From Escherichia coli (GTDB lineage Bacteria; Pseudomonadota; Gammaproteobacteria; Enterobacterales; Enterobacteriaceae), in assembly GCF_036507355.1 (NCBI RefSeq), contig NZ_AP027877.1: a DNA stretch of 64,000 bases. One strand, 5' to 3'. The notes below the pieces were generated by a model. It ran no database searches and was not told the DNA's origin. It saw only the letters and a program-made list of their open reading frames with translations. Of this stretch, positions 26,608-64,000 are shown in pieces; position 1 is the first letter of the stretch, and every line of letters starts with the position of its first letter. The position numbers and the translations under genes are program-made.

Positions 26608-26636
26608 CAACTCATCGCCGGAGAGACGATGAGTTG
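26608..26636. terminator. Perfect 10-bp stem hairpin between the convergent mscM and yjeM (possible bidirectional terminator)
   Basis: caactcatcg-ccggagaga-cgatgagttg; no clear U-tract on either side. Confidence 0.3.
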
Positions 26637-26651
26637 CAGGATTTCATAGGA

Positions 26652-29350: not shown

Positions 29351-29528
29351 AGTTAAATCTCCAGTTTTTGACAAGGGCACGAAGTCTACTCGCAACGCGA
29401 CGGCGAGACAAATTTTACGCAGGAATCAAACAGCGGTGGGCAGTAACTAAAAAAAGCACGATCTGATGGTTTAGTAATTAAATTAATCATCTTCAGTGAT
29501 AATTTAGCCCTCTTGCGCACTAAAAAAA

Positions 29529-35118: not shown

Positions 35119-35298
35119 ATCAGGCTCCGGAGAATTGGGGCCGTCCCCGGTGAAAAGAGGCGTTTGCAGGTCGTCCTGCAAAGCTGATGGTTGAACGGAT
35201 ATTTTGCCAGGTGGCAGAGGAATTTCAACTATTACCTTTGTGACTATCGCAAAAAAACAAACGGCACGACACAGCTGTCGTACCGTTATTGCTTATTG

Positions 35299-35732: not shown

Positions 35733-36299
35733 TTACTTCACGCGAGAGACGTATTCACCAGAGCGGGTATCCACTTTGATGACTTCGCCGATTTGTACGA
35801 ACAGCGGAACTTTAACCACAGCGCCAGTAGACAGGGTAGCCGGTTTGCCGCCAGTACCTGCGGTATCACCTTTCAGGCCCGGATCGGTATCAACGATTTC
35901 CAGTTCAACGAAGTTCGGCGGAGTAACGGAGATCGGCTGACCATTCCACAGAGTTACGATACACTCTGCCTGATCCAGCAGCCATTTAGCGTTGTCGCCA
36001 ATTGCTTTTGCGTCAGCAGACAGCTGCTCGAAAGTTTCGTTGTTCATGAAGTGCCAGAACTCACCGTCGTTGTACAGGTAAGTCAGGTTCATATCGACAA
36101 CATCAGCGCCTTCAGCGGAATCAGTAGATTTGAAGGTTTTTTCTACGCGAGTACCGGTCAGCAGACGACGCAGTTTAACGCGAGCAAATGCCTGGCCTTT
36201 ACCCGGTTTTACGAATTCACTCGCTTCAACCGCGTAAGGTTCGCCGTCTAACATGATTTTAAGACCAGCACGAAAATCGTTGCTATAGTACGTTGCCAT
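35733..36299 (-). CDS. efp: Elongation factor P
   Basis: 188-aa [27 protein letters not shown]... with the modified-lysine loop KPGKGQA. Confidence 0.97.
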
Positions 36300-37501: not shown

Positions 37502-37681
37502 AGAGCAACAAACGCAAGTACAGCAACCTGTCATTAAACTGGGAAATTTAATCTTTGCCCGTTGCATAACCTTTAATTATTCATATGCATTGCTGTTGTT
37601 ACTCTTTATATAACTAACACCAATAAGGTGATGCTGCCAACTTACTGATTTAGTGTATGATGGTGTTTTTGAGGTGCTCCA

Positions 37682-37957
37682 GTGGCTTCTGTTTCTATCA
37701 GCTGTCCCTCCTGTTCAGCTACTGACGGGGTGGTGCGTAACGGCAAAAGCACCGCCGGACATCAGCGCTATCTCTGCTCTCACTGCCGTAAAACATGGCA
37801 ACTGCAGTTCACTTACACCGCTTCTCAACCCGGTACGCACCAGAAAATCATTGATATGGCCATGAATGGCGTTGGATGCCGGGCAACAGCCCGCATTATG
37901 GGCATTGGCCTCAACACGATTTTACGTCACTTAAAAAACTCAGGCCGCAGTCGGTAA
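37682..37957 (+). CDS. insA: IS1 InsA (transposition inhibitor / N-terminal part of the InsAB' transposase)
   Basis: 91-aa [43 protein letters not shown]... (zinc finger plus HTH). Confidence 0.92.
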
Positions 37958-38379
37958 CCTCGCGCATACAGCCGGGCAGTGACGTCATCGTCTGCGCGGA
38001 AATGGACGAACAGTGGGGCTATGTCGGGGCTAAATCGCGCCAGCGCTGGCTGTTTTACGCGTATGACAGGCTCCGGAAGACGGTTGTTGCGCACGTATTC
38101 GGTGAACGCACGATGGCGACGCTGGGGCGTCTTATGAGCCTGCTGTCACCCTTTGACGTGGTGATATGGATGACGGATGGCTGGCCGCTGTATGAATCCC
38201 GCCTGAAGGGAAAGCTGCACGTAATCAGCAAGCGATATACGCAGCGAATTGAGCGGCATAACCTGAATCTGAGGCAGCACCTGGCACGGCTGGGACGGAA
38301 GTCGCTGTCGTTCTCAAAATCGGTGGAGCTGCATGACAAAGTCATCGGGCATTATCTGAACATAAAACACTATCAATAA
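37876..38379 (+). CDS. insB: IS1 InsB reading frame (expressed as InsAB' after a -1 frameshift)
   Basis: -1 frame relative to insA; [16 protein letters not shown]...DDE-type catalytic region, 167 aa. Confidence 0.9.
37933..37939 (+). other. IS1 programmed -1 ribosomal frameshift site (AAAAAAC)
   Basis: A6C heptamer in the insA/insB overlap. Confidence 0.6.
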
Positions 38380-38540
38380 GTTGGAGTCATTACCCACCAA
38401 TAATTAACCTTTCTTTTCTGTTTATATAGAGTGAGTACGGCTATTTATGTTATTTTAACAACTATTACTACCAAGCCCATTTATCTGGCTTATAAATTAA
38501 AATTAATTATTTAATTGAGAAATGGTTAGGGAGAACCTAC

Positions 38541-46000: not shown

Positions 46001-47302
46001 ATGCTAGTTGTAGAACTCATCATAGTTTTGCTGGCGATCTTCTTGGGCGCCAGATTGGGGGGAATAGGTATTGGTTTTGCAGGCGGATTGGGGGTGCTGG
46101 TTCTTGCCGCTATTGGCGTTAAACCCGGTAACATCCCGTTCGATGTCATTTCCATTATCATGGCGGTTATCGCCGCTATTTCTGCCATGCAGGTTGCTGG
46201 CGGTCTGGACTATCTGGTTCATCAGACAGAAAAGCTGCTGCGCCGTAACCCGAAATACATCACGATCCTCGCACCGATCGTGACCTATTTCCTGACAATC
46301 TTTGCTGGTACTGGCAACATCTCTCTGGCGACACTGCCAGTTATCGCTGAAGTTGCGAAGGAACAAGGCGTTAAACCTTGCCGTCCGCTGTCTACTGCAG
46401 TGGTATCCGCGCAGATTGCGATCACCGCATCGCCAATCTCAGCGGCAGTGGTTTACATGTCTTCCGTGATGGAAGGTCATGGCATCAGCTACCTCCATCT
46501 GCTCTCCGTGGTCATCCCGTCCACCCTGCTGGCGGTTCTGGTGATGTCCTTCCTGGTCACTATGCTGTTCAACTCCAAACTCTCTGACGATCCGATTTAT
46601 CGCAAGCGTCTGGAAGAGGGCCTGGTTGAACTGCGCGGTGAAAAGCAGATTGAAATCAAATCCGGTGCAAAAACGTCCGTCTGGCTGTTCCTGCTGGGCG
46701 TAGTTGGCGTGGTTATCTATGCAATCATCAACAGCCCAAGCATGGGTCTGGTTGAAAAACCGCTGATGAACACCACCAACGCAATCCTGATCATCATGCT
46801 CAGCGTTGCAACTCTGACCACCGTTATCTGTAAAGTCGATACCGACAACATCCTCAACTCCAGCACCTTCAAAGCAGGTATGAGCGCCTGTATTTGTATC
46901 CTGGGTGTTGCGTGGCTGGGCGATACTTTCGTTTCCAACAACATCGACTGGATCAAAGATACCGCTGGTGAAGTGATTCAGGGTCATCCGTGGCTGCTGG
47001 CCGTCATCTTCTTCTTTGCTTCTGCTCTGCTGTACTCTCAGGCTGCAACCGCAAAAGCACTGATGCCGATGGCTCTGGCACTGAACGTTTCTCCGCTGAC
47101 CGCTGTTGCTTCTTTCGCTGCGGTGTCTGGTCTGTTCATTCTGCCGACCTACCCGACGCTGGTTGCTGCGGTACAGATGGATGACACGGGTACTACCCGT
47201 ATCGGTAAATTCGTCTTCAACCATCCGTTCTTCATCCCGGGTACTCTGGGTGTTGCCCTGGCCGTTTGCTTCGGCTTCGTGCTGGGTAGCTTCATGCTGT
47301 AA
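46001..47302 (+). CDS. dcuA: Anaerobic C4-dicarboxylate transporter DcuA
   Basis: 433-aa polytopic ORF MLVVELIIVLLAIFLGARLGGIGIGFAGG... Confidence 0.95.
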   Translation: MLVVELIIVLLAIFLGARLGGIGIGFAGGLGVLVLAAIGVKPGNIPFDVISIIMAVIAAISAMQVAGGLDYLVHQTEKLLRRNPKYITILAPIVTYFLTIFAGTGNISLATLPVIAEVAKEQGVKPCRPLSTAVVSAQIAITASPISAAVVYMSSVMEGHGISYLHLLSVVIPSTLLAVLVMSFLVTMLFNSKLSDDPIYRKRLEEGLVELRGEKQIEIKSGAKTSVWLFLLGVVGVVIYAIINSPSMGLVEKPLMNTTNAILIIMLSVATLTTVICKVDTDNILNSSTFKAGMSACICILGVAWLGDTFVSNNIDWIKDTAGEVIQGHPWLLAVIFFFASALLYSQAATAKALMPMALALNVSPLTAVASFAAVSGLFILPTYPTLVAAVQMDDTGTTRIGKFVFNHPFFIPGTLGVALAVCFGFVLGSFML

Positions 47303-47417
47303 TGACCAATCGCGGGGCGTTCACGCCCCGCTTTCTTTCCCGCCGACTAACATCCTTCCCCCGTCCGTTGTATAGTGACCTCTCTCTTGCGGTTCCATCT
47401 GTTCTTGCGAGGTGTTT

Positions 47418-47756
47418 ATGCTTGATGAAAAAAGTTCGAATACCGCGTCTGTCGTGGTGCTATGTACCGCACCGGATGAAGCGACAGCCCAGGATTTAGC
47501 CGCCAAAGTGCTGGCGGAAAAACTGGCGGCCTGCGCGACCTTGATCCCCGGCGCTACCTCTCTCTATTACTGGGAAGGTAAGCTGGAGCAAGAATACGAA
47601 GTGCAGATGATTTTAAAAACTACCGTATCTCACCAGCAGGCACTGCTGGAATGCCTGAAGTCTCATCATCCATATCAAACCCCGGAACTTCTGGTTTTAC
47701 CTGTTACACACGGAGACACAGATTACCTCTCATGGCTCAACGCATCTTTACGCTGA
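47418..47756 (+). CDS. cutA: Divalent-cation tolerance protein CutA
   Basis: ATG at 47418 ([25 protein letters not shown]..., 112 aa). Confidence 0.9.
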
Positions 47757-49429
47757 TCCTGCTACTTTGCAGCACTTCCGTTTTTGCCGGATTATTCGAC
47801 GCGCCGGGACGTTCACAATTTGTCCCCGCGGATCAAGCCTTTACTTTTGATTTTCAGCAAAACCAACATGACCTTAATCTGACCTGGCAGATCAAAGACG
47901 GTTACTACCTCTACCGTAAACAGATCCGCATTACGCCGGAACACGCGAAAATTGCCGACGTGCAGCTTCCGCAAGGCGTCTGGCATGAAGATGAGTTTTA
48001 CGGCAAAAGCGAGATTTACCGCGATCGGCTGACGCTTCCCGTAACCATCAACCAGGCGAGTGCGGGAGCGACGTTAACTGTCACCTACCAGGGCTGTGCT
48101 GATGCCGGTTTCTGTTATCCGCCAGAAACCAAAACCGTTCCGTTAAGCGAAGTGGTCGCCAACAACGCAGCGTCACAGCCTGTGTCTGTTTCGCAGCAAG
48201 AGCAGCACACCGCGCAATTGCCCTTTTCCGCGCTCTGGGCGTTGTTGATCGGTATTGGTATCGCCTTTACGCCATGCGTGCTGCCAATGTACCCACTGAT
48301 TTCTGGCATCGTGCTGGGTGGTAAACAGCGGCTCTCCACTGCCAGAGCATTGTTGCTGACCTTTATTTATGTGCAGGGGATGGCACTGACTTACACGGCG
48401 CTGGGTCTGGTAGTTGCCGCCGCAGGGTTACAGTTCCAGGCGGCGCTACAGCACCCATACGTGCTCATTGGCCTCGCCATCGTCTTTACCTTGCTGGCGA
48501 TGTCAATGTTTGGCTTGTTTACTCTACAACTCCCCTCCTCGCTGCAAACGCGCCTCACGCTGATGAGCAATCGCCAACAGGGCGGCTCACCCGGCGGAGT
48601 GTTTATTATGGGGGCGATTGCCGGACTGATCTGTTCACCATGCACCACCGCACCGCTTAGCGCGATTCTGCTGTATATCGCCCAAAGCGGGAACATGTGG
48701 CTGGGCGGCGGCACGCTTTATCTCTATGCGTTGGGCATGGGCCTGCCGCTGATGCTAATTACCGTCTTTGGTAACCGCTTGCTGCCGAAAAGCGGCCCGT
48801 GGATGGAACAAGTCAAAACCGCGTTTGGTTTTGTGATCCTCGCACTGCCGGTCTTCCTGCTGGAGCGAGTGATTGGTGATATATGGGGATTACGCTTGTG
48901 GTCGGCGCTGGGTGTCGCATTCTTTGGCTGGGCCTTTATCACCAGCCTACAGACCAAACGCGGCTGGATGCGCGTGGTGCAAATAATCCTGCTGGCAGCG
49001 GCATTGGTTAGCGTGCGCCCACTTCAGGATTGGGCATTTGGTGCGACGCATACCGCGCAAACTCAGACGCATCTCAACTTTACACAAATCAAAACGGTAG
49101 ATGAGTTAAATCAGGCGCTCGTTGAAGCCAAAGGCAAACCGGTGATATTAGATCTTTATGCCGACTGGTGCGTCGCCTGTAAAGAGTTTGAGAAATACAC
49201 CTTCAGCGACCCGCAGGTGCAAAAAGCGTTAGCAGACACGGTCTTACTTCAGGCCAACGTCACGGCCAACGACGCACAAGATGTGGCGCTGTTAAAGCAT
49301 CTTAATGTCCTTGGCCTACCGACAATTCTCTTTTTTGACGGACAAGGCCAGGAGCATCCACAAGCACGCGTCACGGGCTTTATGGATGCTGAAACCTTCA
49401 GCGCACATTTGCGCGATCGCCAACCGTGA
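47732..49429 (+). CDS. dsbD: Thiol:disulfide interchange protein DsbD
   Basis: ATG at 47732 ([19 protein letters not shown]..., 565 aa); C-terminal thioredoxin CxxC ([10 protein letters not shown]); overlaps the cutA 3' end by 25 nt. Confidence 0.93.
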
Positions 49430-49465
49430 ACGACACTTGCAGTGGGAAAGACGGAGGAAAATAGC

Positions 49466-50041
49466 GTGCAACGTGAAGATGTACTGGGAGAAGCCCTGAA
49501 ATTATTAGAATTACAAGGGATTGCCAACACCACGCTGGAGATGGTTGCTGAACGTGTGGATTATCCACTGGACGAGCTGCGCCGCTTCTGGCCAGACAAA
49601 GAGGCAATACTCTACGATGCGCTGCGTTATCTTAGCCAACAGATAGATGTCTGGCGTCGTCAGCTGATGCTGGACGAAACGCAAACCGCCGAACAAAAGC
49701 TGCTGGCACGTTATCAGGCGTTATCGGAGTGCGTTAAAAACAACCGCTATCCGGGCTGTCTATTTATCGCTGCCTGTACGTTTTATCCCGATCCTGGCCA
49801 CCCTATTCATCAACTGGCCGATCAGCAAAAAAGCGCGGCCTACGATTTCACCCACGAACTGTTAACCACGCTGGAAGTTGACGATCCAGCGATGGTAGCA
49901 AAGCAGATGGAACTGGTGCTGGAAGGCTGTTTAAGCCGAATGCTGGTGAATCGTAGCCAGGCGGATGTCGACACCGCACATCGGCTGGCGGAAGATATCC
50001 TGCGCTTCGCCCGCTGCCGCCAGGGTGGTGCACTGACCTGA
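49466..50041 (+). CDS. yjdC: TetR-family HTH transcriptional regulator YjdC
   Basis: GTG at 49466 ([31 protein letters not shown]..., 191 aa); an upstream GTG at 49442 is an alternative start. Confidence 0.8.
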
Positions 50042-50137
50042 CAGAAACACAGAAAAGAAGCGATTTGCCGCAATCTTAAGCAGTTGAATCGCTTTTACTG
50101 AAATTAGGTTGACGAGATGTGCAGATTACGGTTTAAT

Positions 50138-50213
50138 GCGCCCCGTTGCCCGGATAGCTCAGTCGGTAGAGCAGGGGATTGAAAATCCCCGTGTCCTTGG
50201 TTCGATTCCGAGT
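50138..50213 (+). tRNA. pheU: tRNA-Phe (GAA)
   Basis: GCCCGGATAGCTCAGTCGGTAGAGCAGGGGATTGAAAATCCCCGTGTCCTTGGTTCGATTCCGAGTCCGGGCACCA, 76 nt with encoded CCA. Confidence 0.96.
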
Positions 50214-50222
50214 CCGGGCACC

Positions 50223-50252
50223 AAATTCATATAAACGGACCTCCACGGAGGT
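50223..50252 (+). terminator. Intrinsic terminator after pheU
   Basis: aaacggacctcc-acgg-aggtccgttttt. Confidence 0.7.
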
Positions 50253-50839
50253 CCGTTTTTCGTTTCTGGACGCCACAATTTAAGTGTTCTGCCTTCAAAT
50301 CAATTCTACCGAACTCAACCCGATTCTCCCCACATCACCAGCAATTTGCGGGCATATCCCAATTCGGGAAAATTTGTTTCTGAGCTATAGCACTGACTGA
50401 CGTGAAATGTCGTGCGGCCCCGTGATGCTGTTGAACGTCAAATGACGTCATCAGGAGCGTAACGCATCCATAAAGCACAACATCAGTCTGAACGCCGACT
50501 GATGAGATTTTCTGAATGAGAACAAAGAGAAATGTATCGGTCCACTTGCTCATGCAAAGACTAACAATCCATTAAAATAGTAAGCGCTCTGGACAATTTT
50601 CCATGGATTATTTTCTGAACATTTTTCTTTGGCAAAGATGATGAATTTTGATGATAAGGAATATTACTTCTGGTTCTCAGTAAAATCCTTTCGTAATACC
50701 ATGTAATCAAGAAGTTTATGGCTGGTAAAAATAACGTCTTGCATTCACCAATAATATGTAAATAAACCCATCTATAGATGGTAAAAATAGGTTGTGGCAA
50801 TTATCATTGCATCATTCCCTTTTCGAATGAGTTTCTATT

Positions 50840-52378
50840 ATGCAACAACCTGTAGTTCGCGTTGGCGAATGGCTTGTTACTCCGTCCATAAACCAAATTA
50901 GCCGCAATGGGCGTCAACTTACCCTTGAGCCGAGATTAATCGATCTTCTGGTTTTCTTTGCTCAACACAGTGGCGAAGTACTTAGCAGGGATGAACTTAT
51001 CGATAATGTCTGGAAGAGAAGTATTGTCACCAATCACGTTGTGACGCAGAGTATCTCAGAACTACGTAAGTCATTAAAAGATAATGATGAAGATAGTCCT
51101 GTCTATATCGCTACTGTACCAAAGCGCGGCTATAAATTAATGGTGCCGGTTATCTGGCACAGCGAAGAAGAGGGAGAGGAAATAATGCTATCTTCGCCTC
51201 CCCCTATACCAGAGGCGGTTCCTGCCACAGATTCTCCCTCCCACAGTCTTAACATTCAAAACACCGCAACGCCACCTGAACAATCCCCAGTTAAAAGCAA
51301 ACGATTCACTACCTTTTGGGTATGGTTTTTTTTCCTGTTGTCCTTAGGTATCTGTGTAGCACTGGTAGCGTTTTCAAGTCTTGATACACGTCTTCCGATG
51401 AGCAAATCGCGTATTTTGCTCAATCCACGCGATATTGACATTAATATGGTAAATAAAAGTTGTAACAGCTGGAGTTCCCCGTATCAGCTCTCTTACGCGA
51501 TAGGCGTGGGTGATTTGGTGGCGACATCACTTAACACCTTCTCCACCTTTATGGTGCATGACAAAATCAACTACAACATTGATGAACCGAGCAGTTCCGG
51601 TAAAACATTATCTATTGCGTTTGTTAATCAGCGCCAATACCGTGCTCAACAATGCTTTATGTCGATAAAATTGGTAGACAATGCAGATGGTTCAACCATG
51701 CTGGATAAACGTTATGTCATCACTAACGGTAATCAGCTGGCGATTCAAAATGATTTACTGGAGAGTTTATCAAAAGCGTTAAACCAACCGTGGCCACAAC
51801 GAATGCAGGAGACGCTCCAGCAAATTTTGCCTCATCGTGGTGCGTTATTAACTAATTTTTATCAGGCACATGATTATTTACTGCATGGCGATGATAAATC
51901 ATTGAACCGTGCCAGTGAATTATTAGGTGAGATTGTTCAATCATCTCCAGAATTTACCTACGCGAGAGCAGAAAAAGCATTAGTTGATATCGTGCGCCAT
52001 TCTCAACATCCTTTAGATGAAAAACAATTAGCAGCACTGAACACAGAAATAGATAACATTGTTACACTACCGGAATTGAATAACTTGTCCATTATATATC
52101 AAATAAAAGCGGTCAGTGCTCTGGTAAAAGGTAAAACAGATGAGTCTTACCAGGCGATAAATACTGGCATTGATCTTGAAATGTCCTGGCTAAATTATGT
52201 ATTGCTTGGCAAGGTTTATGAAATGAAGGGGATGAACCGGGAAGCGGCTGATGCATATCTCACCGCCTTTAATTTACGCCCAGGGGCAAACACCCTTTAC
52301 TGGATTGAAAATGGTATATTCCAGACTTCTGTTCCTTATGTTGTACCTTATCTCGACAAATTTCTCGCTTCAGAATAA
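50840..52378 (+). CDS. cadC: Membrane-integrated transcriptional activator CadC (ToxR-like)
   Basis: 512-aa ORF MQQPVVRVGEWLVTPSINQISRNGRQLTLEPRLIDLL... with N-terminal winged-helix, single TM segment and periplasmic sensor. Confidence 0.95.
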   Translation: MQQPVVRVGEWLVTPSINQISRNGRQLTLEPRLIDLLVFFAQHSGEVLSRDELIDNVWKRSIVTNHVVTQSISELRKSLKDNDEDSPVYIATVPKRGYKLMVPVIWHSEEEGEEIMLSSPPPIPEAVPATDSPSHSLNIQNTATPPEQSPVKSKRFTTFWVWFFFLLSLGICVALVAFSSLDTRLPMSKSRILLNPRDIDINMVNKSCNSWSSPYQLSYAIGVGDLVATSLNTFSTFMVHDKINYNIDEPSSSGKTLSIAFVNQRQYRAQQCFMSIKLVDNADGSTMLDKRYVITNGNQLAIQNDLLESLSKALNQPWPQRMQETLQQILPHRGALLTNFYQAHDYLLHGDDKSLNRASELLGEIVQSSPEFTYARAEKALVDIVRHSQHPLDEKQLAALNTEIDNIVTLPELNNLSIIYQIKAVSALVKGKTDESYQAINTGIDLEMSWLNYVLLGKVYEMKGMNREAADAYLTAFNLRPGANTLYWIENGIFQTSVPYVVPYLDKFLASE

Positions 52379-52743
52379 GTAACCCCCGGGTTGATTCATG
52401 CTCGGGAATATTTGTTGTTGAGTTTTTGTATGTTCCTGTTGGTGTAATATGTTGCGGCAATTTATTTGCCGCATAATTTTTATTACATAAATTTAACCAG
52501 AAGACGTCACGCAATCTATTGTAAACATTGAATGTTTATCTTTTCATGATATCAACTTGCGATCCTGATGTGTTAATAAAAAACCTCAAGTTCTCACTTA
52601 CAGAAACTTTTGTGTTATTTCACCTAATCTTTAGGATTAATCCTTTTTTCGTGAGTAATCTTATCGCCAGTTTGGTCTGGTCAGGAAATAGTTATACATC
52701 ATGACCCGGACTCCAAATTCAAAAATGAAATTAGGAGAAGAGC

Positions 52744-54078
52744 ATGAGTTCTGCCAAGAAGATCGGGCTATTTGCCTGTACCGGTGTTGTTGCCGGTAAT
52801 ATGATGGGGAGCGGTATTGCATTATTACCTGCGAACCTAGCAAGTATCGGTGGTATTGCTATCTGGGGTTGGATTATCTCTATTATTGGTGCAATGTCGC
52901 TGGCGTATGTATATGCCCGACTGGCAACAAAAAACCCGCAACAAGGTGGCCCAATTGCTTATGCCGGAGAAATTTCTCCTGCATTTGGTTTTCAGACAGG
53001 TGTTCTTTATTACCATGCTAACTGGATTGGTAACCTGGCGATTGGTATTACCGCTGTATCTTATCTTTCCACCTTCTTCCCAGTATTAAATGATCCTGTT
53101 CCGGCGGGTATCGCCTGTATTGCTATCGTCTGGGTATTTACCTTTGTAAATATGCTCGGCGGTACCTGGGTAAGCCGTTTAACCACTATTGGTCTGGTGC
53201 TGGTTCTTATTCCTGTGGTGATGACTGCTATTGTTGGCTGGCATTGGTTTGATGCGGCAACTTATGCAGCTAACTGGAATACTGCGGATACCACTGATGG
53301 TCATGCGATCATTAAAAGTATTCTGCTCTGCCTGTGGGCCTTCGTGGGTGTTGAATCCGCAGCTGTAAGTACTGGTATGGTTAAAAACCCGAAACGTACC
53401 GTTCCGCTGGCAACCATGCTGGGTACTGGTTTAGCAGGTATTGTTTACATCGCTGCGACTCAGGTGCTTTCCGGTATGTATCCGTCTTCTGTAATGGCGG
53501 CCTCCGGTGCTCCGTTTGCAATCAGTGCTTCAACTATCCTCGGTAACTGGGCTGCGCCGCTGGTTTCTGCATTCACCGCCTTTGCGTGCCTGACTTCTCT
53601 GGGCTCCTGGATGATGTTGGTAGGCCAGGCAGGTGTACGTGCCGCTAACGACGGTAACTTCCCGAAAGTTTATGGTGAAGTCGACAGCAACGGTATTCCG
53701 AAAAAAGGTCTGCTGCTGGCTGCAGTGAAAATGACTGCCCTGATGATCCTCATCACTCTGATGAACTCTGCCGGTGGTAAAGCATCTGACCTGTTCGGTG
53801 AACTGACCGGTATCGCAGTACTGCTGACTATGCTGCCGTACTTCTACTCTTGCGTTGACCTGATTCGTTTTGAAGGCGTTAACATCCGCAACTTTGTCAG
53901 CCTGATCTGCTCTGTACTGGGTTGCGTGTTCTGCTTCATCGCGCTGATGGGCGCAAGCTCCTTCGAGCTGGCAGGTACCTTCATCGTCAGCCTGATTATC
54001 CTGATGTTCTACGCTCGCAAAATGCACGAGCGCCAGAGCCACTCAATGGATAACCACACCGCGTCTAACGCACATTAA
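52744..54078 (+). CDS. cadB: Lysine/cadaverine antiporter CadB
   Basis: 444-aa polytopic ORF MSSAKKIGLFACTGVVAGNMMGSGIALLPANLA... Confidence 0.95.
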   Translation: MSSAKKIGLFACTGVVAGNMMGSGIALLPANLASIGGIAIWGWIISIIGAMSLAYVYARLATKNPQQGGPIAYAGEISPAFGFQTGVLYYHANWIGNLAIGITAVSYLSTFFPVLNDPVPAGIACIAIVWVFTFVNMLGGTWVSRLTTIGLVLVLIPVVMTAIVGWHWFDAATYAANWNTADTTDGHAIIKSILLCLWAFVGVESAAVSTGMVKNPKRTVPLATMLGTGLAGIVYIAATQVLSGMYPSSVMAASGAPFAISASTILGNWAAPLVSAFTAFACLTSLGSWMMLVGQAGVRAANDGNFPKVYGEVDSNGIPKKGLLLAAVKMTALMILITLMNSAGGKASDLFGELTGIAVLLTMLPYFYSCVDLIRFEGVNIRNFVSLICSVLGCVFCFIALMGASSFELAGTFIVSLIILMFYARKMHERQSHSMDNHTASNAH

Positions 54079-54157
54079 TTAAAAGTATTTTCCGAGGCTC
54101 CTCCTTTCATTTTGTCCCATGTGTTGGGAGGGGCCTTTTTTACCTGGAGATATGACT

Positions 54158-56305
54158 ATGAACGTTATTGCAATATTGAATCACATGGGGGTTTATTTTA
54201 AAGAAGAACCCATCCGTGAACTTCATCGCGCGCTTGAACGTCTGAACTTCCAGATTGTTTACCCGAACGACCGTGACGACTTATTAAAACTGATCGAAAA
54301 CAATGCGCGTCTGTGCGGCGTTATTTTTGACTGGGATAAATATAATCTCGAGCTGTGCGAAGAAATTAGCAAAATGAACGAGAACCTGCCGTTGTACGCG
54401 TTCGCTAATACGTATTCCACTCTCGATGTAAGCCTGAATGACCTGCGTTTACAGATTAGCTTCTTTGAATATGCGCTGGGTGCTGCTGAAGATATTGCTA
54501 ACAAGATCAAGCAGACCACTGACGAATATATCAACACTATTCTGCCTCCGCTGACTAAAGCACTGTTTAAATATGTTCGTGAAGGTAAATATACTTTCTG
54601 TACTCCTGGTCACATGGGCGGTACTGCATTCCAGAAAAGCCCGGTAGGTAGCCTGTTCTATGATTTCTTTGGTCCGAATACCATGAAATCTGATATTTCC
54701 ATTTCAGTATCTGAACTGGGTTCTCTGCTGGATCACAGTGGTCCACACAAAGAAGCAGAACAGTATATCGCTCGCGTCTTTAACGCAGACCGCAGCTACA
54801 TGGTGACCAACGGTACTTCCACTGCGAACAAAATTGTTGGTATGTACTCTGCTCCGGCAGGCAGCACCATTCTGATTGACCGTAACTGCCACAAATCGCT
54901 GACCCACCTGATGATGATGAGCGATGTTACGCCAATCTATTTCCGCCCGACCCGTAACGCTTACGGTATTCTTGGTGGTATTCCACAGAGTGAATTCCAG
55001 CACGCTACCATTGCTAAGCGCGTGAAAGAAACACCAAACGCAACCTGGCCGGTACATGCTGTAATTACTAACTCTACCTATGATGGTCTGCTGTACAACA
55101 CCGACTTCATCAAGAAAACACTGGATGTGAAATCCATCCACTTTGACTCCGCGTGGGTGCCTTACACCAACTTCTCACCGATTTACGAAGGTAAATGCGG
55201 TATGAGCGGTGGCCGTGTAGAAGGGAAAGTGATTTACGAAACCCAGTCCACTCACAAACTGCTGGCGGCGTTCTCTCAGGCTTCCATGATCCACGTTAAA
55301 GGTGACGTAAACGAAGAAACCTTTAACGAAGCCTACATGATGCACACCACCACTTCTCCGCACTACGGTATCGTGGCGTCCACTGAAACCGCTGCAGCGA
55401 TGATGAAAGGTAATGCTGGTAAGCGTCTGATCAACGGTTCCATTGAACGTGCGATCAAATTCCGTAAAGAGATCAAACGTTTGAGAACGGAATCTGATGG
55501 CTGGTTCTTTGATGTATGGCAGCCGGATCATATCGATACGACTGAATGCTGGCCGCTGCGTTCTGACAGCACCTGGCACGGCTTCAAAAACATCGATAAC
55601 GAGCACATGTATCTTGACCCGATCAAAGTCACCCTGCTGACTCCGGGGATGGAAAAAGACGGCACCATGAGCGACTTTGGTATTCCGGCCAGCATCGTGG
55701 CGAAATACCTCGACGAACATGGCATCGTTGTTGAGAAAACCGGTCCGTATAACCTGCTGTTCCTGTTCAGCATCGGTATCGATAAGACCAAAGCACTGAG
55801 CCTGCTGCGTGCTCTGACTGACTTCAAACGTGCGTTCGACCTGAACCTGCGTGTGAAAAACATGCTGCCGTCTCTGTATCGTGAAGATCCTGAATTCTAT
55901 GAAAACATGCGTATTCAGGAACTGGCTCAGAATATCCACAAACTGATTGTTCACCACAATCTGCCGGATCTGATGTATCGCGCATTTGAAGTGCTGCCGA
56001 CGATGGTAATGACTCCGTATGCTGCGTTCCAGAAAGAGCTGCACGGTATGACCGAAGAAGTTTACCTCGACGAAATGGTAGGTCGTATTAACGCCAATAT
56101 GATCCTTCCATATCCGCCGGGAGTTCCTCTGGTAATGCCGGGTGAAATGATCACCGAAGAAAGCCGTCCGGTTCTGGAGTTCCTGCAGATGCTGTGTGAA
56201 ATCGGCGCTCACTATCCGGGCTTTGAAACCGATATTCACGGTGCATACCGTCAGGCTGATGGCCGCTATACCGTTAAGGTATTGAAAGAAGAAAGCAAAA
56301 AATAA
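54158..56305 (+). CDS. cadA: Inducible lysine decarboxylase CadA
   Basis: ATG at 54158 (MNVIAILNHMGVYFKEEPIRELHRALERLNF..., 715 aa) with GGAGA 8 nt upstream. Confidence 0.96.
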   Translation: MNVIAILNHMGVYFKEEPIRELHRALERLNFQIVYPNDRDDLLKLIENNARLCGVIFDWDKYNLELCEEISKMNENLPLYAFANTYSTLDVSLNDLRLQISFFEYALGAAEDIANKIKQTTDEYINTILPPLTKALFKYVREGKYTFCTPGHMGGTAFQKSPVGSLFYDFFGPNTMKSDISISVSELGSLLDHSGPHKEAEQYIARVFNADRSYMVTNGTSTANKIVGMYSAPAGSTILIDRNCHKSLTHLMMMSDVTPIYFRPTRNAYGILGGIPQSEFQHATIAKRVKETPNATWPVHAVITNSTYDGLLYNTDFIKKTLDVKSIHFDSAWVPYTNFSPIYEGKCGMSGGRVEGKVIYETQSTHKLLAAFSQASMIHVKGDVNEETFNEAYMMHTTTSPHYGIVASTETAAAMMKGNAGKRLINGSIERAIKFRKEIKRLRTESDGWFFDVWQPDHIDTTECWPLRSDSTWHGFKNIDNEHMYLDPIKVTLLTPGMEKDGTMSDFGIPASIVAKYLDEHGIVVEKTGPYNLLFLFSIGIDKTKALSLLRALTDFKRAFDLNLRVKNMLPSLYREDPEFYENMRIQELAQNIHKLIVHHNLPDLMYRAFEVLPTMVMTPYAAFQKELHGMTEEVYLDEMVGRINANMILPYPPGVPLVMPGEMITEESRPVLEFLQMLCEIGAHYPGFETDIHGAYRQADGRYTVKVLKEESKK

Positions 56306-56363
56306 TTAGCTCGTACAAGGGAAGTGGCTTGCCACTTCCCTTTTTTGCTCATAAGGAGAACAC

Positions 56364-57821
56364 ATGAAAACACCCTCACAGCCGCGCGCGATATACTATA
56401 TCGTGGCGATCCAAATCTGGGAGTACTTCAGTTTTTACGGCATGCGTGCCTTACTCATTCTCTATCTCACCCATCAGCTTGGTTTTGATGATAACCATGC
56501 CATCAGCCTGTTCAGCGCATATGCTTCTCTGGTTTACGTTACCCCTATTCTCGGCGGCTGGCTTGCCGACCGCCTGCTCGGCAACCGCACTGCAGTGATT
56601 GCCGGCGCGCTGTTAATGACCCTTGGCCATGTGGTGCTGGGCATTGATACAAATTCAACCTTTAGCCTGTATCTGGCGCTGGCAATCATTATTTGTGGCT
56701 ACGGTTTATTCAAATCAAACATCAGCTGTTTGCTTGGCGAGCTCTACGACGAGAACGATCATCGACGTGATGGCGGTTTTTCGCTGCTGTATGCTGCGGG
56801 CAATATCGGTTCTATCGCCGCCCCAATCGCCTGCGGCCTGGCTGCTCAGTGGTATGGATGGCATGTTGGCTTTGCCCTTGCGGGTGGCGGCATGTTTATC
56901 GGTTTGTTGATTTTCTTAAGCGGTCATCGTCATTTCCAGTCCACGCGTAGTATGGATAAAAAAGCGCTCACTAGCGTGAAATTTGCCTTACCAGTATGGA
57001 GCTGGTTAGTGGTGATGCTCTGTTTAGCCCCAGTATTTTTTACTCTGCTGCTGGAGAACGACTGGTCCGGATATTTGCTGGCGATCGTTTGCCTCATTGC
57101 CGCACAAATCATTGCCCGCATGATGATCAAATTCCCCGAACACCGCCGTGCTCTTTGGCAAATTGTATTGTTGATGTTTGTCGGGACGTTGTTCTGGGTA
57201 CTGGCACAACAGGGCGGCAGTACCATCAGCTTGTTTATCGATCGCTTTGTGAATCGTCAGGCATTCAATATTGAAGTACCTACTGCACTATTCCAGTCGG
57301 TGAATGCAATTGCGGTGATGCTCGCTGGGGTTGTTCTGGCCTGGCTGGCGTCGCCAGAAAGCCGCGGCAACTCAACATTGCGCGTCTGGCTGAAGTTTGC
57401 CTTTGGCTTACTGCTGATGGCTTGTGGCTTTATGTTGCTGGCATTTGATGCCCGACATGCAGCGGCTGACGGTCAAGCGTCAATGGGCGTGATGATATCC
57501 GGGTTGGCGCTAATGGGCTTTGCCGAACTCTTTATTGACCCGGTGGCGATTGCGCAAATCACGCGTCTGAAAATGTCTGGCGTATTAACCGGGATTTATA
57601 TGCTGGCAACAGGCGCGGTCGCCAACTGGCTGGCAGGCGTAGTGGCACAGCAGACGACAGAGTCGCAAATTAGCGGTATGGCAATTGCAGCTTACCAGCG
57701 ATTCTTTTCTCAGATGGGAGAGTGGACGTTGGCTTGTGTCGCGATCATCGTGGTATTGGCCTTTGCTGCCCGTTTTCTGTTTAGCACGCCGACGAATATG
57801 ATACAGGAGAGCAACGATTAA
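56364..57821 (+). CDS. dtpC: Proton-dependent di/tripeptide transporter DtpC (YjdL), POT family
   Basis: 485-aa polytopic [38 protein letters not shown]... Confidence 0.93.
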
Positions 57822-58057
57822 CTGTCGTAAAAACAATTATTTATGAATAAATTAACTTTCAGTTTATAACACTAGCAAATCGATATTAATAAGTCATTTA
57901 AACCATTTTGATGGTTATTTATTAGTGATATCAACTTGAGGTAAGCGTTAGTTTCGATAAGATAAACTGAGTTACTAATAGTCGAGGCAGATAATACAGT
58001 GTACCGATCTGTCTCTTTATCTACGCTAAATTGAAAGCTGGATTTAGAGGAACCAAA

Positions 58058-59575
58058 ATGTCTGAACAAGAAACACGGGGAGCCAATGAGGCTATTGATT
58101 TTAACGATGAACTGAGAAATCGCCGCGAAAAACTGGCGGCACTACGTCAGCAAGGTGTGGCGTTTCCCAATGATTTTCGCCGCGACCATACCTCTGACCA
58201 GTTGCACGAAGAGTTTGATGCGAAGGATAACCAGGAACTGGAATCCTTAAACATTGAAGTCTCGGTTGCTGGCCGAATGATGACCCGTCGTATCATGGGG
58301 AAAGCCTCCTTTGTAACGTTGCAGGATGTCGGTGGCCGTATTCAACTGTACGTCGCACGAGATAGCCTGCCAGAAGGTGTTTATAACGATCAGTTTAAAA
58401 AATGGGATCTGGGTGACATTATCGGTGCCCGCGGTACGCTGTTTAAGACGCAAACGGGTGAGCTTTCCATTCACTGTACTGAGCTGCGTCTGCTGACTAA
58501 AGCACTACGTCCTTTACCAGATAAATTCCATGGTCTGCAGGATCAGGAAGTTCGTTATCGTCAACGTTATCTGGACCTCATCGCTAACGATAAATCCCGT
58601 CAAACGTTTGTTGTCCGTTCAAAAATTCTGGCCGCTATCCGTCAGTTCATGGTCGCGCGCGGCTTTATGGAAGTAGAAACCCCGATGATGCAGGTAATTC
58701 CAGGTGGGGCATCTGCTCGCCCGTTTATTACCCATCATAATGCTCTGGATTTAGATATGTATCTGCGTATCGCGCCGGAGCTGTATCTGAAACGTCTGGT
58801 TGTAGGCGGTTTTGAACGGGTATTCGAAATCAACCGTAACTTCCGTAATGAAGGTATTTCTGTTCGCCATAATCCTGAGTTCACAATGATGGAACTCTAC
58901 ATGGCGTATGCGGATTACCACGATTTGATTGAACTGACAGAGTCACTGTTCCGCACCCTGGCACAAGAGGTTCTGGGTACCACTAAAGTCACTTATGGCG
59001 AGCATGTGTTTGATTTCGGCAAACCGTTTGAAAAACTCACCATGCGCGAAGCAATCAAAAAATATCGTCCAGAAACCGATATGGCCGACCTGGATAATTT
59101 TGATGCTGCTAAAGCATTAGCTGAATCTATCGGTATTACGGTAGAGAAAAGCTGGGGGCTGGGACGTATTGTCACGGAGATCTTTGATGAAGTGGCAGAA
59201 GCACATCTGATTCAGCCAACCTTTATTACGGAATATCCGGCAGAAGTGTCACCGCTGGCACGCCGTAATGATGTTAACCCGGAAATCACCGACCGTTTTG
59301 AATTCTTCATCGGTGGTCGTGAAATCGGTAATGGTTTTAGCGAATTAAACGACGCAGAAGATCAGGCTGAACGTTTCCAGGAACAGGTTAATGCTAAAGC
59401 TGCAGGTGACGACGAAGCCATGTTCTATGACGAAGATTACGTGACTGCGCTGGAATATGGTCTGCCGCCAACCGCTGGTCTGGGTATTGGTATCGACCGA
59501 ATGATTATGCTGTTCACAAACAGTCATACTATTCGCGACGTTATTCTCTTCCCGGCGATGCGCCCACAGAAATAA
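58058..59575 (+). CDS. lysU: Lysine--tRNA ligase, heat-inducible isoform
   Basis: ATG at 58058 ([40 protein letters not shown]..., 505 aa); class II aaRS. Confidence 0.95.
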
Positions 59576-59588
59576 ATTTCACTTTAAT

Positions 59589-59618
59589 GAACGAAGCAGT
59601 CAGGCGACTGCTTCGTTC
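59589..59618. terminator. Perfect 13-bp stem hairpin between the convergent lysU and ghoT (likely bidirectional terminator)
   Basis: gaacgaagcagtc-aggc-gactgcttcgttc. Confidence 0.5.
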
Positions 59619-59693
59619 GTCGTTCCGCAAATCCAGTTTTGAGGAGAGACGCTTCGTTTCACGATAACCAGCGGGTCCACTCAACTACAGCTC

Positions 59694-59867
59694 CTAAAAG
59701 AGAGAAAAAAGTAATGCCACAGGCAGACTCATTGGCCAGGTTATTCCGACCAGGAATGCACTAAGTAAACGAATATGTGTTTTCTCATGTGAGATAAACC
59801 AGATAATGACAAAGGATATGTTCACACCAATCACATAAAAAATTAATATTTTAGAGAATAGTGCCAT
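59694..59867 (-). CDS. ghoT: Type V toxin GhoT (small membrane-lytic peptide)
   Basis: Hand-translated 57-aa ORF MALFSKILIFYVIGVNISFVIIWFISHEKTHIRLLSAFLVGITWPMSLPVALLFSLF; below the ORF-track cutoff. Confidence 0.85.
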   Translation of the reverse strand: MALFSKILIFYVIGVNISFVIIWFISHEKTHIRLLSAFLVGITWPMSLPVALLFSLF

Positions 59868-59894
59868 TTTTTATGTTCTTCTTATCCTTCCTGG

Positions 59895-60191
59895 CTACTT
59901 GTAAAACTGACGGAAATAGTCATCAACTGTCATAATGTTGAGGTCAAAGTCAATATCCGGTAAGTCTAAGCATTTAAGCCTGATTAAATCTTCGATTTCA
60001 CTTGCGGCTAACGATGTCGTTATTGCGAAGGAGTTTTCATTCAATTGTCGTGGTATCCCATATTCATCAGCCACGATAGAGGAGAAATTCATATCATACA
60101 TCAATGATCTTAACCTTAAGAACACTGAGGAATAAGATGATGGATAATCAAAAGAAACAACATAAGTATTGAACTTGTTTTTACCTTCCAT
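59895..60191 (-). CDS. ghoS: Type V antitoxin GhoS (endoribonuclease cleaving ghoT mRNA)
   Basis: 98-aa ORF MEGKNKFNTYVVSFDYPSSYSSVFLRLRSLMYDMNFSSIVADEYGIP... immediately upstream of ghoT. Confidence 0.87.
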   Translation of the reverse strand: MEGKNKFNTYVVSFDYPSSYSSVFLRLRSLMYDMNFSSIVADEYGIPRQLNENSFAITTSLAASEIEDLIRLKCLDLPDIDFDLNIMTVDDYFRQFYK

Positions 60192-60417
60192 AATATGACT
60201 CCTATCAATATTGAACGCTCTGGGGACGCAAAACTTATTAACCCCGATTGATGATTCTCATATAGGAGATATTCTTTTTTTTGCTCAGTAAAGGGGATGA
60301 CTTGGGACAAAAAAACGCGCTCTCTGCCCATTCTTTGTGCATCCCCCTACCCTTCAGATGCTCTCCTGCATCACACCGTGGAGAGCATGAAAAATATCGT
60401 GAATCTGTACTCTCCCA

Positions 60418-60690
60418 TCAACTGCGAATATCATCATACTCCCGCGTTTTATCAAATTCGTGTTTCGCAAATGGACATAATGGGATAATTTTTCGTTTTT
60501 CCCGACGCATTTTTTCCACGACTTTCGCAACCAGCTGTTTACCAATCCCTTGCCCTTTCAGGCTTTCATCGACATCGGTATGTTCGATAATCGCTAAATT
60601 CTCTCCGGTCGGCACAAAGACAATTTCAGCGATTTGCTTGCCCTGTTCATCATTAATGTAAAATTTATTGTAGCCTTCGCGTATTTCCAT
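60418..60690 (-). CDS. yjdJ: GNAT-like small protein YjdJ
   Basis: 90-aa [56 protein letters not shown]... Confidence 0.8.
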
Positions 60691-60701
60691 TTTACCCTCG
60701 C

Positions 60702-60932
60702 TTATTTATGACGGTATTTCAGCGCGCCGCTCGGGCACGTATCAATCACTTTAACCACAGTGGTAACGTCGACTTCATCCGGCATGATCCACGGCTTTCG
60801 TTTGAGATTAAATAACTTGCCGTTGCCACGTACGCAATTGCCAGAATGCTGACATATCGCAGTATTGAAATAGACATCGATCTTTTCGCCGGTATAACAG
60901 CGATAACCCCCGTCCAGTAGCGCCTGATCCAT
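60702..60932 (-). CDS. yjdI: Small Cys-rich protein YjdI
   Basis: 76-aa [42 protein letters not shown]... Confidence 0.8.
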
Positions 60933-61112
60933 GACCTTCCCTCTCTCATCAGTATGATTATCGCTATAAGCATAGCCCTGGAATCCTCATACAGCACTGG
61001 CAGTTTCCGTTGCCAGAGTCTCTTCCCCTATATAGCCAATCATTCTTACTCCCTTTGAATTACCCGCCTCATCAGAGATAATGCTTAAGAAATTTGTCAC
61101 ACAAGGAAGCTG

Positions 61113-62744
61113 ATGAGACATTCATTGCCCTACCGCATGTTACGCAAACGTCCGATGAAATTGAGTACCACAGTGATCTTAATGGTCAGCGCGGTACTGT
61201 TCTCGGTGCTATTGGTGGTGCATCTGATTTACTTCTCGCAAATCAGTGATATGACGCGAGACGGGCTAGCCAACAAGGCACTGGCAGTGGCGCGTACTCT
61301 CGCCGACTCGCCGGAAATCCGTCAGGGCTTGCAGAAAAAACCGCAGGAGAGTGGAATCCAGGCCATCGCGGAAGCCGTGCGCAAACGCAACGATCTGCTG
61401 TTTATTGTCGTTACCGATATGCAAAGTCTTCGCTATTCGCATCCTGAAGCCCAGCGTATTGGTCAGCCATTTAAAGGTGATGACATCCTTAAGGCGCTGA
61501 ATGGCGAAGAAAATGTCGCTATCAATCGCGGTTTTCTGGCGCAGGCTTTACGCGTATTTACCCCCATCTACGATGAAAATCATAAACAAATTGGCGTGGT
61601 GGCGATCGGCCTTGAGTTAAGCCGCGTGACCCAACAGATCAATGACAGTCGCTGGAGCATTATCTGGTCAGTATTATTTGGCATGCTGGTCGGACTGATT
61701 GGCACCTGCATTCTGGTTAAAGTACTGAAAAAAATCCTTTTCGGCCTGGAACCCTACGAAATCTCCACGCTGTTTGAGCAACGCCAGGCCATGTTGCAGT
61801 CTATCAAAGAAGGCGTCGTTGCCGTGGACGATCGCGGCGAGGTCACGCTGATCAACGATGCCGCACAAGAATTGCTGAATTACCGTAAGTCGCAGGACGA
61901 TGAGAAACTGTCGACGCTAAGCCACTCGTGGTCACAGGTGGTAGATGTCTCGGAAGTGTTACGCGACGGTACCCCGCGCCGCGACGAAGAGATTACGATT
62001 AAAGATCGGCTATTACTGATCAACACCGTTCCGGTGCGCAGTAATGGCGTTATCATCGGTGCCATTTCAACCTTCAGGGACAAAACTGAAGTACGTAAAC
62101 TGATGCAGCGACTCGACGGTCTGGTCAACTATGCTGATGCACTTCGTGAACGATCCCACGAATTTATGAATAAATTGCATGTGATTCTCGGATTATTGCA
62201 TCTGAAGAGTTATAAGCAGTTGGAAGATTACATTCTCAAAACAGCCAATAACTATCAGGAAGAGATTGGCTCTCTGCTGGGTAAGATCAAATCTCCGGTT
62301 ATCGCTGGTTTTTTAATCAGCAAGATTAACCGCGCGACCGATTTAGGCCATACGCTGATTTTAAACAGTGAAAGCCAGCTGCCAGACAGCGGCAGTGAGG
62401 ACCAGGTCGCGACGCTGATTACCACATTGGGAAATCTGATAGAAAACGCGCTGGAAGCATTAGGGCCGGAACCCGGAGGCGAAATTAGCGTAACATTGCA
62501 CTACCGTCACGGCTGGCTGCACTGTGAAGTTAATGATGATGGACCGGGGATCGCACCCGATAAAATCGATCACATTTTTGACAAAGGTGTCTCGACAAAA
62601 GGAAGCGAGCGAGGCGTCGGTTTAGCACTTGTCAAACAACAGGTAGAAAATCTCGGCGGCAGCATCGCCGTGGAATCGGAACCCGGGATTTTCACACAAT
62701 TTTTTGTCCAGATACCCTGGGACGGGGAGAGGTCGAACAGATGA
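61113..62744 (+). CDS. dcuS: C4-dicarboxylate sensor histidine kinase DcuS
   Basis: 543-aa ORF with two TM segments flanking a periplasmic PAS-like domain, H-box (SHEFMNKLHVI) and HATPase domain. Confidence 0.95.
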   Translation: MRHSLPYRMLRKRPMKLSTTVILMVSAVLFSVLLVVHLIYFSQISDMTRDGLANKALAVARTLADSPEIRQGLQKKPQESGIQAIAEAVRKRNDLLFIVVTDMQSLRYSHPEAQRIGQPFKGDDILKALNGEENVAINRGFLAQALRVFTPIYDENHKQIGVVAIGLELSRVTQQINDSRWSIIWSVLFGMLVGLIGTCILVKVLKKILFGLEPYEISTLFEQRQAMLQSIKEGVVAVDDRGEVTLINDAAQELLNYRKSQDDEKLSTLSHSWSQVVDVSEVLRDGTPRRDEEITIKDRLLLINTVPVRSNGVIIGAISTFRDKTEVRKLMQRLDGLVNYADALRERSHEFMNKLHVILGLLHLKSYKQLEDYILKTANNYQEEIGSLLGKIKSPVIAGFLISKINRATDLGHTLILNSESQLPDSGSEDQVATLITTLGNLIENALEALGPEPGGEISVTLHYRHGWLHCEVNDDGPGIAPDKIDHIFDKGVSTKGSERGVGLALVKQQVENLGGSIAVESEPGIFTQFFVQIPWDGERSNR

Positions 62745-63460
62745 TCAATGTATTAATTATCGATGACGACGCAATGGTCGCGGAGCTGAATCGCCGATAC
62801 GTGGCACAAATCCCGGGCTTTCAATGCTGTGGAACGGCCTCGACGCTGGAGAAAGCCAAAGAGATTATCTTCAATAGCGATACGCCTATCGACCTGATAT
62901 TGCTCGATATCTATATGCAAAAAGAGAACGGGCTCGATTTACTGCCTGTCCTGCATAACGCGCGTTGCAAAAGTGATGTGATTGTCATCTCCTCCGCAGC
63001 CGATGCGGCAACCATTAAAGATTCGCTGCATTACGGTGTCGTGGATTACCTGATCAAACCCTTCCAGGCTTCCCGCTTTGAAGAGGCGCTCACCGGCTGG
63101 CGGCAAAAGAAAATGGCGCTGGAAAAACATCAGTATTATGACCAGGCCGAGCTTGATCAGCTAATCCACGGCAGCAGCTCCAACGAGCAGGATCCTCGTC
63201 GCTTGCCAAAAGGCTTAACGCCGCAGACGTTACGCACACTGTGCCAGTGGATTGACGCGCATCAGGACTATGAGTTTTCAACCGACGAGCTAGCCAACGA
63301 GGTTAACATTTCGCGTGTTTCCTGCCGTAAATACCTCATCTGGCTGGTCAACTGCCACATCTTGTTCACCAGTATCCATTATGGCGTCACGGGGCGTCCG
63401 GTTTACCGTTACCGTATTCAGGCAGAACACTACTCACTGCTGAAACAATATTGCCAATAA
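62741..63460 (+). CDS. dcuR: Response regulator DcuR
   Basis: 239-aa ORF MINVLIIDDDAMVAELNRRYVAQIPGF... (receiver domain plus C-terminal HTH); ATG overlaps the dcuS stop (ATGA). Confidence 0.95.
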   Translation: MINVLIIDDDAMVAELNRRYVAQIPGFQCCGTASTLEKAKEIIFNSDTPIDLILLDIYMQKENGLDLLPVLHNARCKSDVIVISSAADAATIKDSLHYGVVDYLIKPFQASRFEEALTGWRQKKMALEKHQYYDQAELDQLIHGSSSNEQDPRRLPKGLTPQTLRTLCQWIDAHQDYEFSTDELANEVNISRVSCRKYLIWLVNCHILFTSIHYGVTGRPVYRYRIQAEHYSLLKQYCQ

Positions 63461-63512
63461 CGGATCGCTGGTTATCTGTAAGTAATAATTATTACCGTAA
63501 TGCAAAATACCC

Positions 63513-63553
63513 CTGGCACAAGTTACATCGTTAATCAGTAAAACTTGTGCCAG
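63513..63553. other. Perfect 12-bp inverted repeat downstream of dcuR in an AT-rich spacer
   Basis: ctggcacaagtt-(17 nt)-aacttgtgccag; no U-tract, so more likely a protein-binding palindrome than a terminator. Confidence 0.3.
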
Positions 63554-64000
63554 ATCAAATATAATTATCCCTCCATCATCGTTAAAAATTAATATCTCTT
63601 CAGATGAACGGTGTTTTTAATTTCAAAACGCTAACAAAAGTTAATTAACTATTATGTCACCCGCATTATGTGTATTTTTACCCACAAATGGGTAAATCAG
63701 ATTAATCTATAAACCTAATGATATCTGCCCTGAGAACAAAAAACAGACCGATAAATATCAATAAGATAACAGCAAACAAAACATTAACATCTGCGCAGTA
63801 CAAACTTTAAACCCATCGCCAGAGAGTTTTTCTCTCTGAAAAAGCCGCTTATCACAGTGCATAAATTTGCCGCTGCTTTAATCAGCCAATATTCACTGTG
63901 AGGTATTTGCTAAAGCCGGTAACGACCAAACGGATATTTAGTCAGGCTCTGAAAACAGTTCATACAAAACAGAACGTGACTGTGATCTATTCAGCAAAAA

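Follow-up and report, generated by a model that had tools for sequence, protein, structure and literature searches.

An intact, apparently functional Cad acid-stress locus (cadC-cadBA-dtpC-lysU) beside pheU in an Escherichia coli contig

The Cad acid-stress locus cadC-cadBA-dtpC-lysU lies beside the tRNA gene pheU, at positions 50840-59575 of a 64,000-nucleotide stretch of Escherichia coli DNA (contig NZ_AP027877.1, assembly GCF_036507355.1) that is called the window throughout. Open reading frames (ORFs) were taken from a six-frame listing, and K-12 MG1655 served as the reference for both gene-by-gene and nucleotide comparison. Gene identities were assigned with NCBIfam profiles at their curated cut-offs, and tRNA genes were called with ARAGORN and Rfam. 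The features of the locus are as follows.

50148-50223, + strand: pheU, tRNA-Phe(GAA), called by ARAGORN and by Rfam RF00005 (68.3 bits), the same as K-12 pheU
50421-50583, + strand: integrase pseudogene remnant (yjdQ in K-12), coordinates carried over from annotated collinear genomes
50840-52378, + strand: cadC, 512 amino acids (aa), ToxR-like membrane-integrated activator responsive to pH and lysine (NF007540)
52379-52743, + strand: cadC-cadB spacer, with the cadC terminator region and the cadBA promoter
52519-52559, + strand: Cad1, a CadC-binding site, 41-mer at -153 to -113 of the cadBA promoter (sequence from PMC5430869)
52744-54078, + strand: cadB, lysine:cadaverine antiporter, 444 aa (NF007754)
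54158-56305, + strand: cadA, inducible lysine decarboxylase, 715 aa (NF011929)
56317-56342, + strand: terminator-like hairpin closing the cadBA unit
56364-57821, + strand: dtpC (yjdL), proton-coupled di/tripeptide permease, 485 aa (TIGR00924)
57822-58057, + strand: dtpC-lysU spacer, the lysU control region, 236 bp, 30.1% GC
57898-57938, + strand: Cad1-like element 5' of lysU, from a repeat search
58058-59575, + strand: lysU, inducible lysyl-tRNA synthetase (LysRS), 505 aa (NF009101)

The listed ORFs run from 50840-52378, 52744-54078, 54119-56305, 56364-57821 and 58031-59575. Two of them begin at earlier in-frame start codons (54119 and 58031), and the true starts of cadA and lysU are 54158 and 58058; the profile NF011929 likewise begins at residue 14 of the longer cadA ORF. 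Set against MG1655, each of the five genes has kept its K-12 length, begins with a proper start and ends with a terminal stop, and none is interrupted by an internal stop. The CadB, CadA and LysU proteins are 100% identical to those of K-12, CadC differs from its K-12 counterpart only by Y107H and K328Q, and DtpC only by T469A (484/485 residues identical). Positions 46774-62775 align with K-12 as one 16-kb block at 99.0% identity, with 157 substitutions and one 1-bp indel, an extra C at 52383, five bases past the cadC stop. The genes lysU, dtpC, cadA, cadB, cadC and pheU of K-12 MG1655 (b4129-b4134) show the same order, orientation, gene lengths and spacer lengths, at about 1% nucleotide divergence. 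The original prediction, made from the letters of the window, had described cadC, cadB and cadA as intact and had named beforehand a frameshift or stop in any of them as the finding that would overturn it; the alignment with K-12 contains neither. None of the lesions by which the Cad system is lost pathoadaptively (deletion, insertion sequence (IS), frameshift or stop in cadC, cadB or cadA) is present here.

CadC, CadB, CadA and LysU all score well above the cut-offs of their equivalog or subfamily profiles. CadC scores 751.7 bits against NF007540 (cut-off 400) over residues 1-509, and the CadB equivalog NF007754 (cadaverine/lysine antiporter) gives 920.4 bits against a cut-off of 585, as fits an antiporter of the APC family, with cadB placed directly upstream of cadA. 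CadA, a fold-type I PLP-dependent enzyme distinct from LdcC, reaches 1628.4 bits with NF011929 (cut-off 1056), which outscores the LdcC model NF011928 (1350 bits). For DtpC, a member of the POT/PTR2 family, the general oligopeptide:H+ symporter profile TIGR00924 passes with 268.1 bits (cut-off 130.2), and the closest specific model, PRK15462 of the DtpD subfamily, stays slightly below its cut-off (612.7 against 623). LysU, a class IIb LysRS, scores 1203.5 bits against the lysine--tRNA ligase profile NF009101 (cut-off 1026) and occupies the lysU position; the label 'lysS' given to this gene in other RefSeq genomes by the Prokaryotic Genome Annotation Pipeline (PGAP) is a naming artefact. Profiles, K-12 comparison and tRNA call thus agree on the genes and on their order beside pheU, as had been proposed.

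The cadC-cadB spacer had been described as long, AT-rich and typical of a heavily regulated promoter, and this description holds. It is 365 bp long with 34.8% GC against 50.6% for the window as a whole, which puts it among the 1% of 365-bp windows poorest in GC, and two terminator-like hairpins (52385-52406 and 52453-52473) stand in it just past cadC. When the spacer is aligned with those of Escherichia fergusonii, Raoultella and Pseudescherichia vulneris, the promoter-proximal 3' part of about 230 bp is strongly conserved, whereas the cadC-proximal 5' part of about 130 bp is not. Cad1 departs from the K-12 41-mer TTGTAAACATTAAATGTTTATCTTTTCATGATATCAACTTG published in PMC5430869 at a single position (40/41 identical). 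The difference is a G at 52530 where K-12 has an A, which changes TTA to TTG; the proposed CadC consensus is TTAxxxxT (PMC5430869). This base was considered as a promoter defect and rejected, because most E. coli share it: 3623 of 5203 genomes, O157:H7 among them, contain the surrounding 61-mer without any change, and it is K-12 that holds the minority allele. The TTAxxxxT sub-site around 52530 is also variable across genera. From 52531 (-141) to the ATG of cadB the window is identical to K-12. The second CadC-binding site, Cad2, presumably lies at 52583-52613 (+ strand), about -89 to -59, the position reportedly given by Kuper and Jung 2005, placed here by offset from the Cad1 numbering in PMC5430869. 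The sequence at 52583-52613 is identical to K-12 and well conserved in the other genera. Both CadC sites, Cad1 and the presumed Cad2, stand upstream of the -35 of cadBA. A weak gapped similarity (score 17) was also seen between 52402-52458 in the spacer and 50364-50418, TCGGGAATATTTGTT against TCGGGAAAATTTGTT at the start, and it is probably a matter of chance.

In CadC the transmembrane segment named in the original prediction is presumably the hydrophobic stretch FTTFWVWFFFLLSLGICVALVAFSSL, residues 156-181, read directly from the sequence. The architecture on record for the identical protein consists of Trans_reg_C (PF00486), the N-terminal OmpR/ToxR-type winged-helix domain that binds DNA, and the periplasmic sensor CadC_C1 (PF18500). 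Solved E. coli structures match both parts, PDB 5JU7 the DNA-binding domain and 3LY7 the periplasmic one. The residues checked are those implicated in DNA binding, the C208-C272 disulfide, pH sensing, coupling to LysP, the R184 cleavage site and the PPP motif whose translation depends on elongation factor P (EF-P). CadC is unchanged at R50, H66, T69, C208, C272, D198, D200, K242, R265, R268, D471 and the others checked, R184 is present (read from segment 155-190), and the PPP motif is intact at 120-122. EF-P dependence of CadC translation has been reported (PMC5078493). The EF-P beta-lysylation system that this PPP motif needs is itself encoded 13-22 kb upstream of cadC, by epmA (28373-29395, - strand), efp (35733-36299, - strand) and epmB (36341-37369, + strand), all of which are full-length ORFs; epmB matches its model.

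The same five genes, in the same order and orientation, were found in Raoultella, P. vulneris, E. fergusonii and Enterobacter sp. C2, with orthologous CadC proteins 64-80% identical. In all four of these other Enterobacteriaceae lineages the flanking genes bear no relation to the E. coli ones. One context is common to P. vulneris and Enterobacter sp. C2, so that the block occupies at least three different chromosomal contexts in the four lineages sampled. Their cadC-cadB spacers measure 337-364 bp and the promoter half is conserved; only 17 bp separate the permease gene from the LysRS gene in P. vulneris and Enterobacter sp. C2. A scan of the sampled flanks in three of these loci (L005-L007), all but the Enterobacter one, turned up no tRNA-Phe gene. 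The recurrence of the block with mostly different flanks supports a selected gene cluster over chance adjacency.

Because of its sequence integrity, its conserved cis-elements and its conserved synteny, the locus is very probably a canonical, functional-looking E. coli Cad acid-stress locus in its ancestral position, pheU-cadC-cadBA-dtpC-lysU. It is an already known and ordinary region of E. coli, and the Cad system is among the best-studied acid-stress systems. The original prediction spoke of an intact and uninterrupted module, and the word module has to be qualified. The strong hairpin after cadA (56317-56342) counts 11 pairs in its stem, 6 of them GC, ahead of a T run; terminator-like hairpins also follow cadC, and another strong one (50233-50258) follows pheU. 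From the hairpins after cadC and cadA and the AT-rich spacer before lysU, the block reads as four predicted transcription units, cadC, cadBA, dtpC and lysU, and not as one operon.

The mechanism can be taken from the literature on K-12 and transferred here by near-identity. At mildly acidic pH and in the presence of external lysine, membrane-integrated CadC would bind Cad1 and Cad2, displace H-NS and activate cadBA. The pH would be sensed by the periplasmic domain and the C208-C272 disulfide, and lysine through LysP as co-sensor. How the signal reaches the DNA is disputed: either intact dimeric CadC would bind DNA, or DegP/DegQ would cleave it at R184, the cleavage site reported in PMC11484849. 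CadA would then convert lysine to cadaverine, using up a proton, and CadB would exchange cadaverine for lysine. As separate units, dtpC and lysU would fit the same acid physiology: a shift to acid induces yjdL (dtpC) (PMC2270276), and moderately low pH induces LysU, which cadaverine inhibits less than it does LysS (PMC5078493).

The strain background is a separate matter. The original prediction argued that a locus so often lost in Shigella and enteroinvasive lineages points, when intact, to a commensal or laboratory-type E. coli. Its premise agrees with the literature. Shigella and most enteroinvasive E. coli (EIEC) are lysine decarboxylase (LDC)-negative through cad lesions, and in EIEC the silencing runs mainly through cadC (PMC5723341, PMC4156367). 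Their cad genes occupy the same chromosomal locus, and collinearity with K-12 is described for those of EIEC (PMC5723341); however, in Shigella and classical EIEC deletions, IS insertions and frameshifts are found in cadC and/or cadBA (PMC4156367, PMC5723341), and the window has none of them. It also speaks for the proposal that the window is K-12-collinear core genome except for one IS1 and the yjeN-yjeO region. Nevertheless, 5188 of 5426 complete E. coli genomes (about 96%) have this collinear region, with O55:H7 and O157:H7 among the top matches. O157:H7 LSU61 shows the same architecture, integrase remnant included, without pseudogene flags on its cad genes, and in the emerging EIEC clone O96:H19 the cad operon is intact and the phenotype LDC-positive (PMC5723341). 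The laboratory-type part of the claim is contradicted further by the 157 substitutions and the 1-bp indel in 16 kb relative to K-12 and by the best match among complete RefSeq E. coli genomes, which reaches only 99.4% over 10 kb around the locus and 99.0% over 25 kb upstream. Therefore the source lineage is without a representative among the complete RefSeq E. coli genomes, since none exceeds 99.0-99.4% over 10-25 kb. The window carries no pathotype marker and so speaks neither for nor against any pathotype. It is consequently doubtful that integrity of the locus identifies a strain as commensal or laboratory-type, and the window is not from a laboratory strain. With a near-universal locus and an intact O96:H19, integrity argues only against Shigella and classical EIEC; what it says is that the strain is not on the route of cadaverine loss taken by these bacteria.

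Several points speak against the main reading. LysP, H-NS and DsbC are trans-acting needs encoded outside the window. The linkage of the five genes is not universal, as no LysRS gene follows the permease in Trabulsiella and the block of Scandinavium consists of cadCBA alone. In addition, CadC carries Y107H (TAC to CAC at 51158) where the DNA-binding domain meets the linker, and a 61-mer with this codon has no exact match in any of the 5238 complete E. coli genomes in which the segment is present; so rare a substitution at this junction may have an effect. It could be supposed that the ORFs are intact and the system is nonetheless silent or attenuated, whether through Y107H, if it impairs the binding of DNA or the passing on of the signal, or through defects that lie beyond the window. 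There is a precedent in EIEC HN280, 4608 and 53638, where cadBA is intact and silenced solely by the missing functional CadC (PMC4156367). The exact CadC protein is recorded as WP_063080436.1/BED24150.1 on two or three contigs only. The same allele occurs in GCA_001616415.1 and in one Logan run, whose DNA is about 1% diverged across the locus and whose cadC differs from that of the window at 4 of 1539 bases. Among orthologues, however, position 107 varies between C, Y, S, R and L, and no residue around it is less conserved. It lies directly past strand beta7 (104-106), and CadC signalling stays normal when V104, I105 and W106 are all changed to alanine (PMC5430869). The cad genes are free of IS, frameshift and stop, and the cadBA promoter is of the majority form. 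The second substitution, K328Q, was considered as unusual and this was rejected, as its 61-mer is found exactly in 1275 genomes; Q stands at 328 in 22 of 26 aligned sequences (25 orthologues and the window). A silent or attenuated system is thus very unlikely. CadC is judged probably functional, with a small residual doubt, and as a natural CadC allele Y107H may be of specialist interest.

An origin from Shigella or a Shigella-like lineage, to which the modest best identity to the 5426 E. coli genomes (99.0-99.4%) and the presence of one IS1 might point, is extremely improbable and was rejected, given the intact cad locus, the single IS in 64 kb of otherwise K-12-collinear sequence, and the deposition of identical CadC, DsbD and DtpC proteins as E. 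coli (BED24148, BED24150, BED24153).

A second element resembling Cad1 was noticed in the lysU control region. The part of Cad1 at 52532-52559 has a 23/28 copy at 57911-57938, which includes the exact 13-mer TGATATCAACTTG. The whole element (57898-57938) lies 120-160 bp upstream of the lysU start codon and carries TGATATCAAC. When both strands of the 64-kb window were searched, it was the best non-self match to the Cad1 41-mer (28/41, the next 24/41) as well as to the 28-mer (23/28, the next 18/28), and its gapped alignment score of 19 was equalled in 1 of 1000 dinucleotide shuffles. Its core, AGTGAnATCAnC, is among three blocks conserved in the region before lysU of E. fergusonii and Raoultella; its AT-rich portion, similar to the Cad1B that CadC contacts, shows no conservation in these two. 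The literature search found no link between lysU and CadC, and in an Lrp genomic-SELEX (systematic evolution of ligands by exponential enrichment) paper the cad genes were looked for and none was found. Moreover, 81% of cells lose their CadC clusters when the CadC-binding site is deleted from the cadBA promoter (PMC6320335), which argues against a strong second CadC site. A functional cis-element shared with the cadBA promoter is accordingly an unlikely reading of this candidate, statistically unusual as it is as a copy of Cad1. If it were functional, CadC or another factor recognising the conserved TGAnATCAnC core would tie the induction of lysU to that of cadBA when the pH is low, and a cadaverine-tolerant LysRS would be directly linked in regulation to the Cad system. 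The otherwise single-target CadC regulon would thereby be widened and the induction of LysU at low pH explained.

The surroundings of the locus deserve a short description. The genes upstream of it are dicD and dsbD. DsbD (47732-49429) is the most diverged protein of this part, with 9 substitutions relative to K-12, three of which exchange a proline (P148S, P154S and P159H). DsbD supplies electrons to DsbC. For DsbC itself, reduction of the CadC disulfide has been reported (PMC11484849).

Between pheU and cadC the spacer measures 616 bp, the same length as in K-12, so there is no island at pheU here. The integrase remnant within it, annotated as pseudogene yjdQ in K-12 and as 'integrase, frameshifted, incomplete' at the same place in CUWW06 and O157:H7 LSU61, is the scar of an old island at pheU. 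An island integrated at pheU and enclosing the cad block was also considered and is unsupported, as there is no direct repeat of the pheU 3' end in 50100-64000. GCA_001616415.1, which shares the CadC allele, has CP4-like island genes directly upstream of cadC over at least 9 kb (L003 1-9118), among them CbtA/CbeA, RadC, an antirestriction gene and ParDE. Within the 10 kb upstream of cadC in that genome no tRNA gene was found, and the pheU end of the island would lie outside that 10 kb. At gathering thresholds Rfam returned no RNA family in the locus of the window besides pheU.

Outside the locus the whole window is K-12-collinear except for the IS1 and a shorter mscM-yjeM spacer without yjeN-yjeO. 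The IS1 is complete (768 bp, 37627-38394), lies between epmB and yjeJ and is flanked by a 9-bp target duplication, CACCAATAA. The original prediction had mentioned an IS1 nearby; being intergenic and 12.4 kb upstream of cadC, it has no bearing on cad. Fifteen complete genomes match at least 80% of a query spanning both IS1 flanks and have an IS1 at or near the same site, which suggests a hot spot or shared ancestry. The mscM-yjeM spacer (26502-26688) is 188 bp long against 743 bp in K-12, yjeN and yjeO being absent or replaced. Finally, a Guanidine-II (mini-ykkC) riboswitch, a known element (RF01068, 50.4 bits), is located at 35136-35182 on the - strand, upstream of gdx/sugE.

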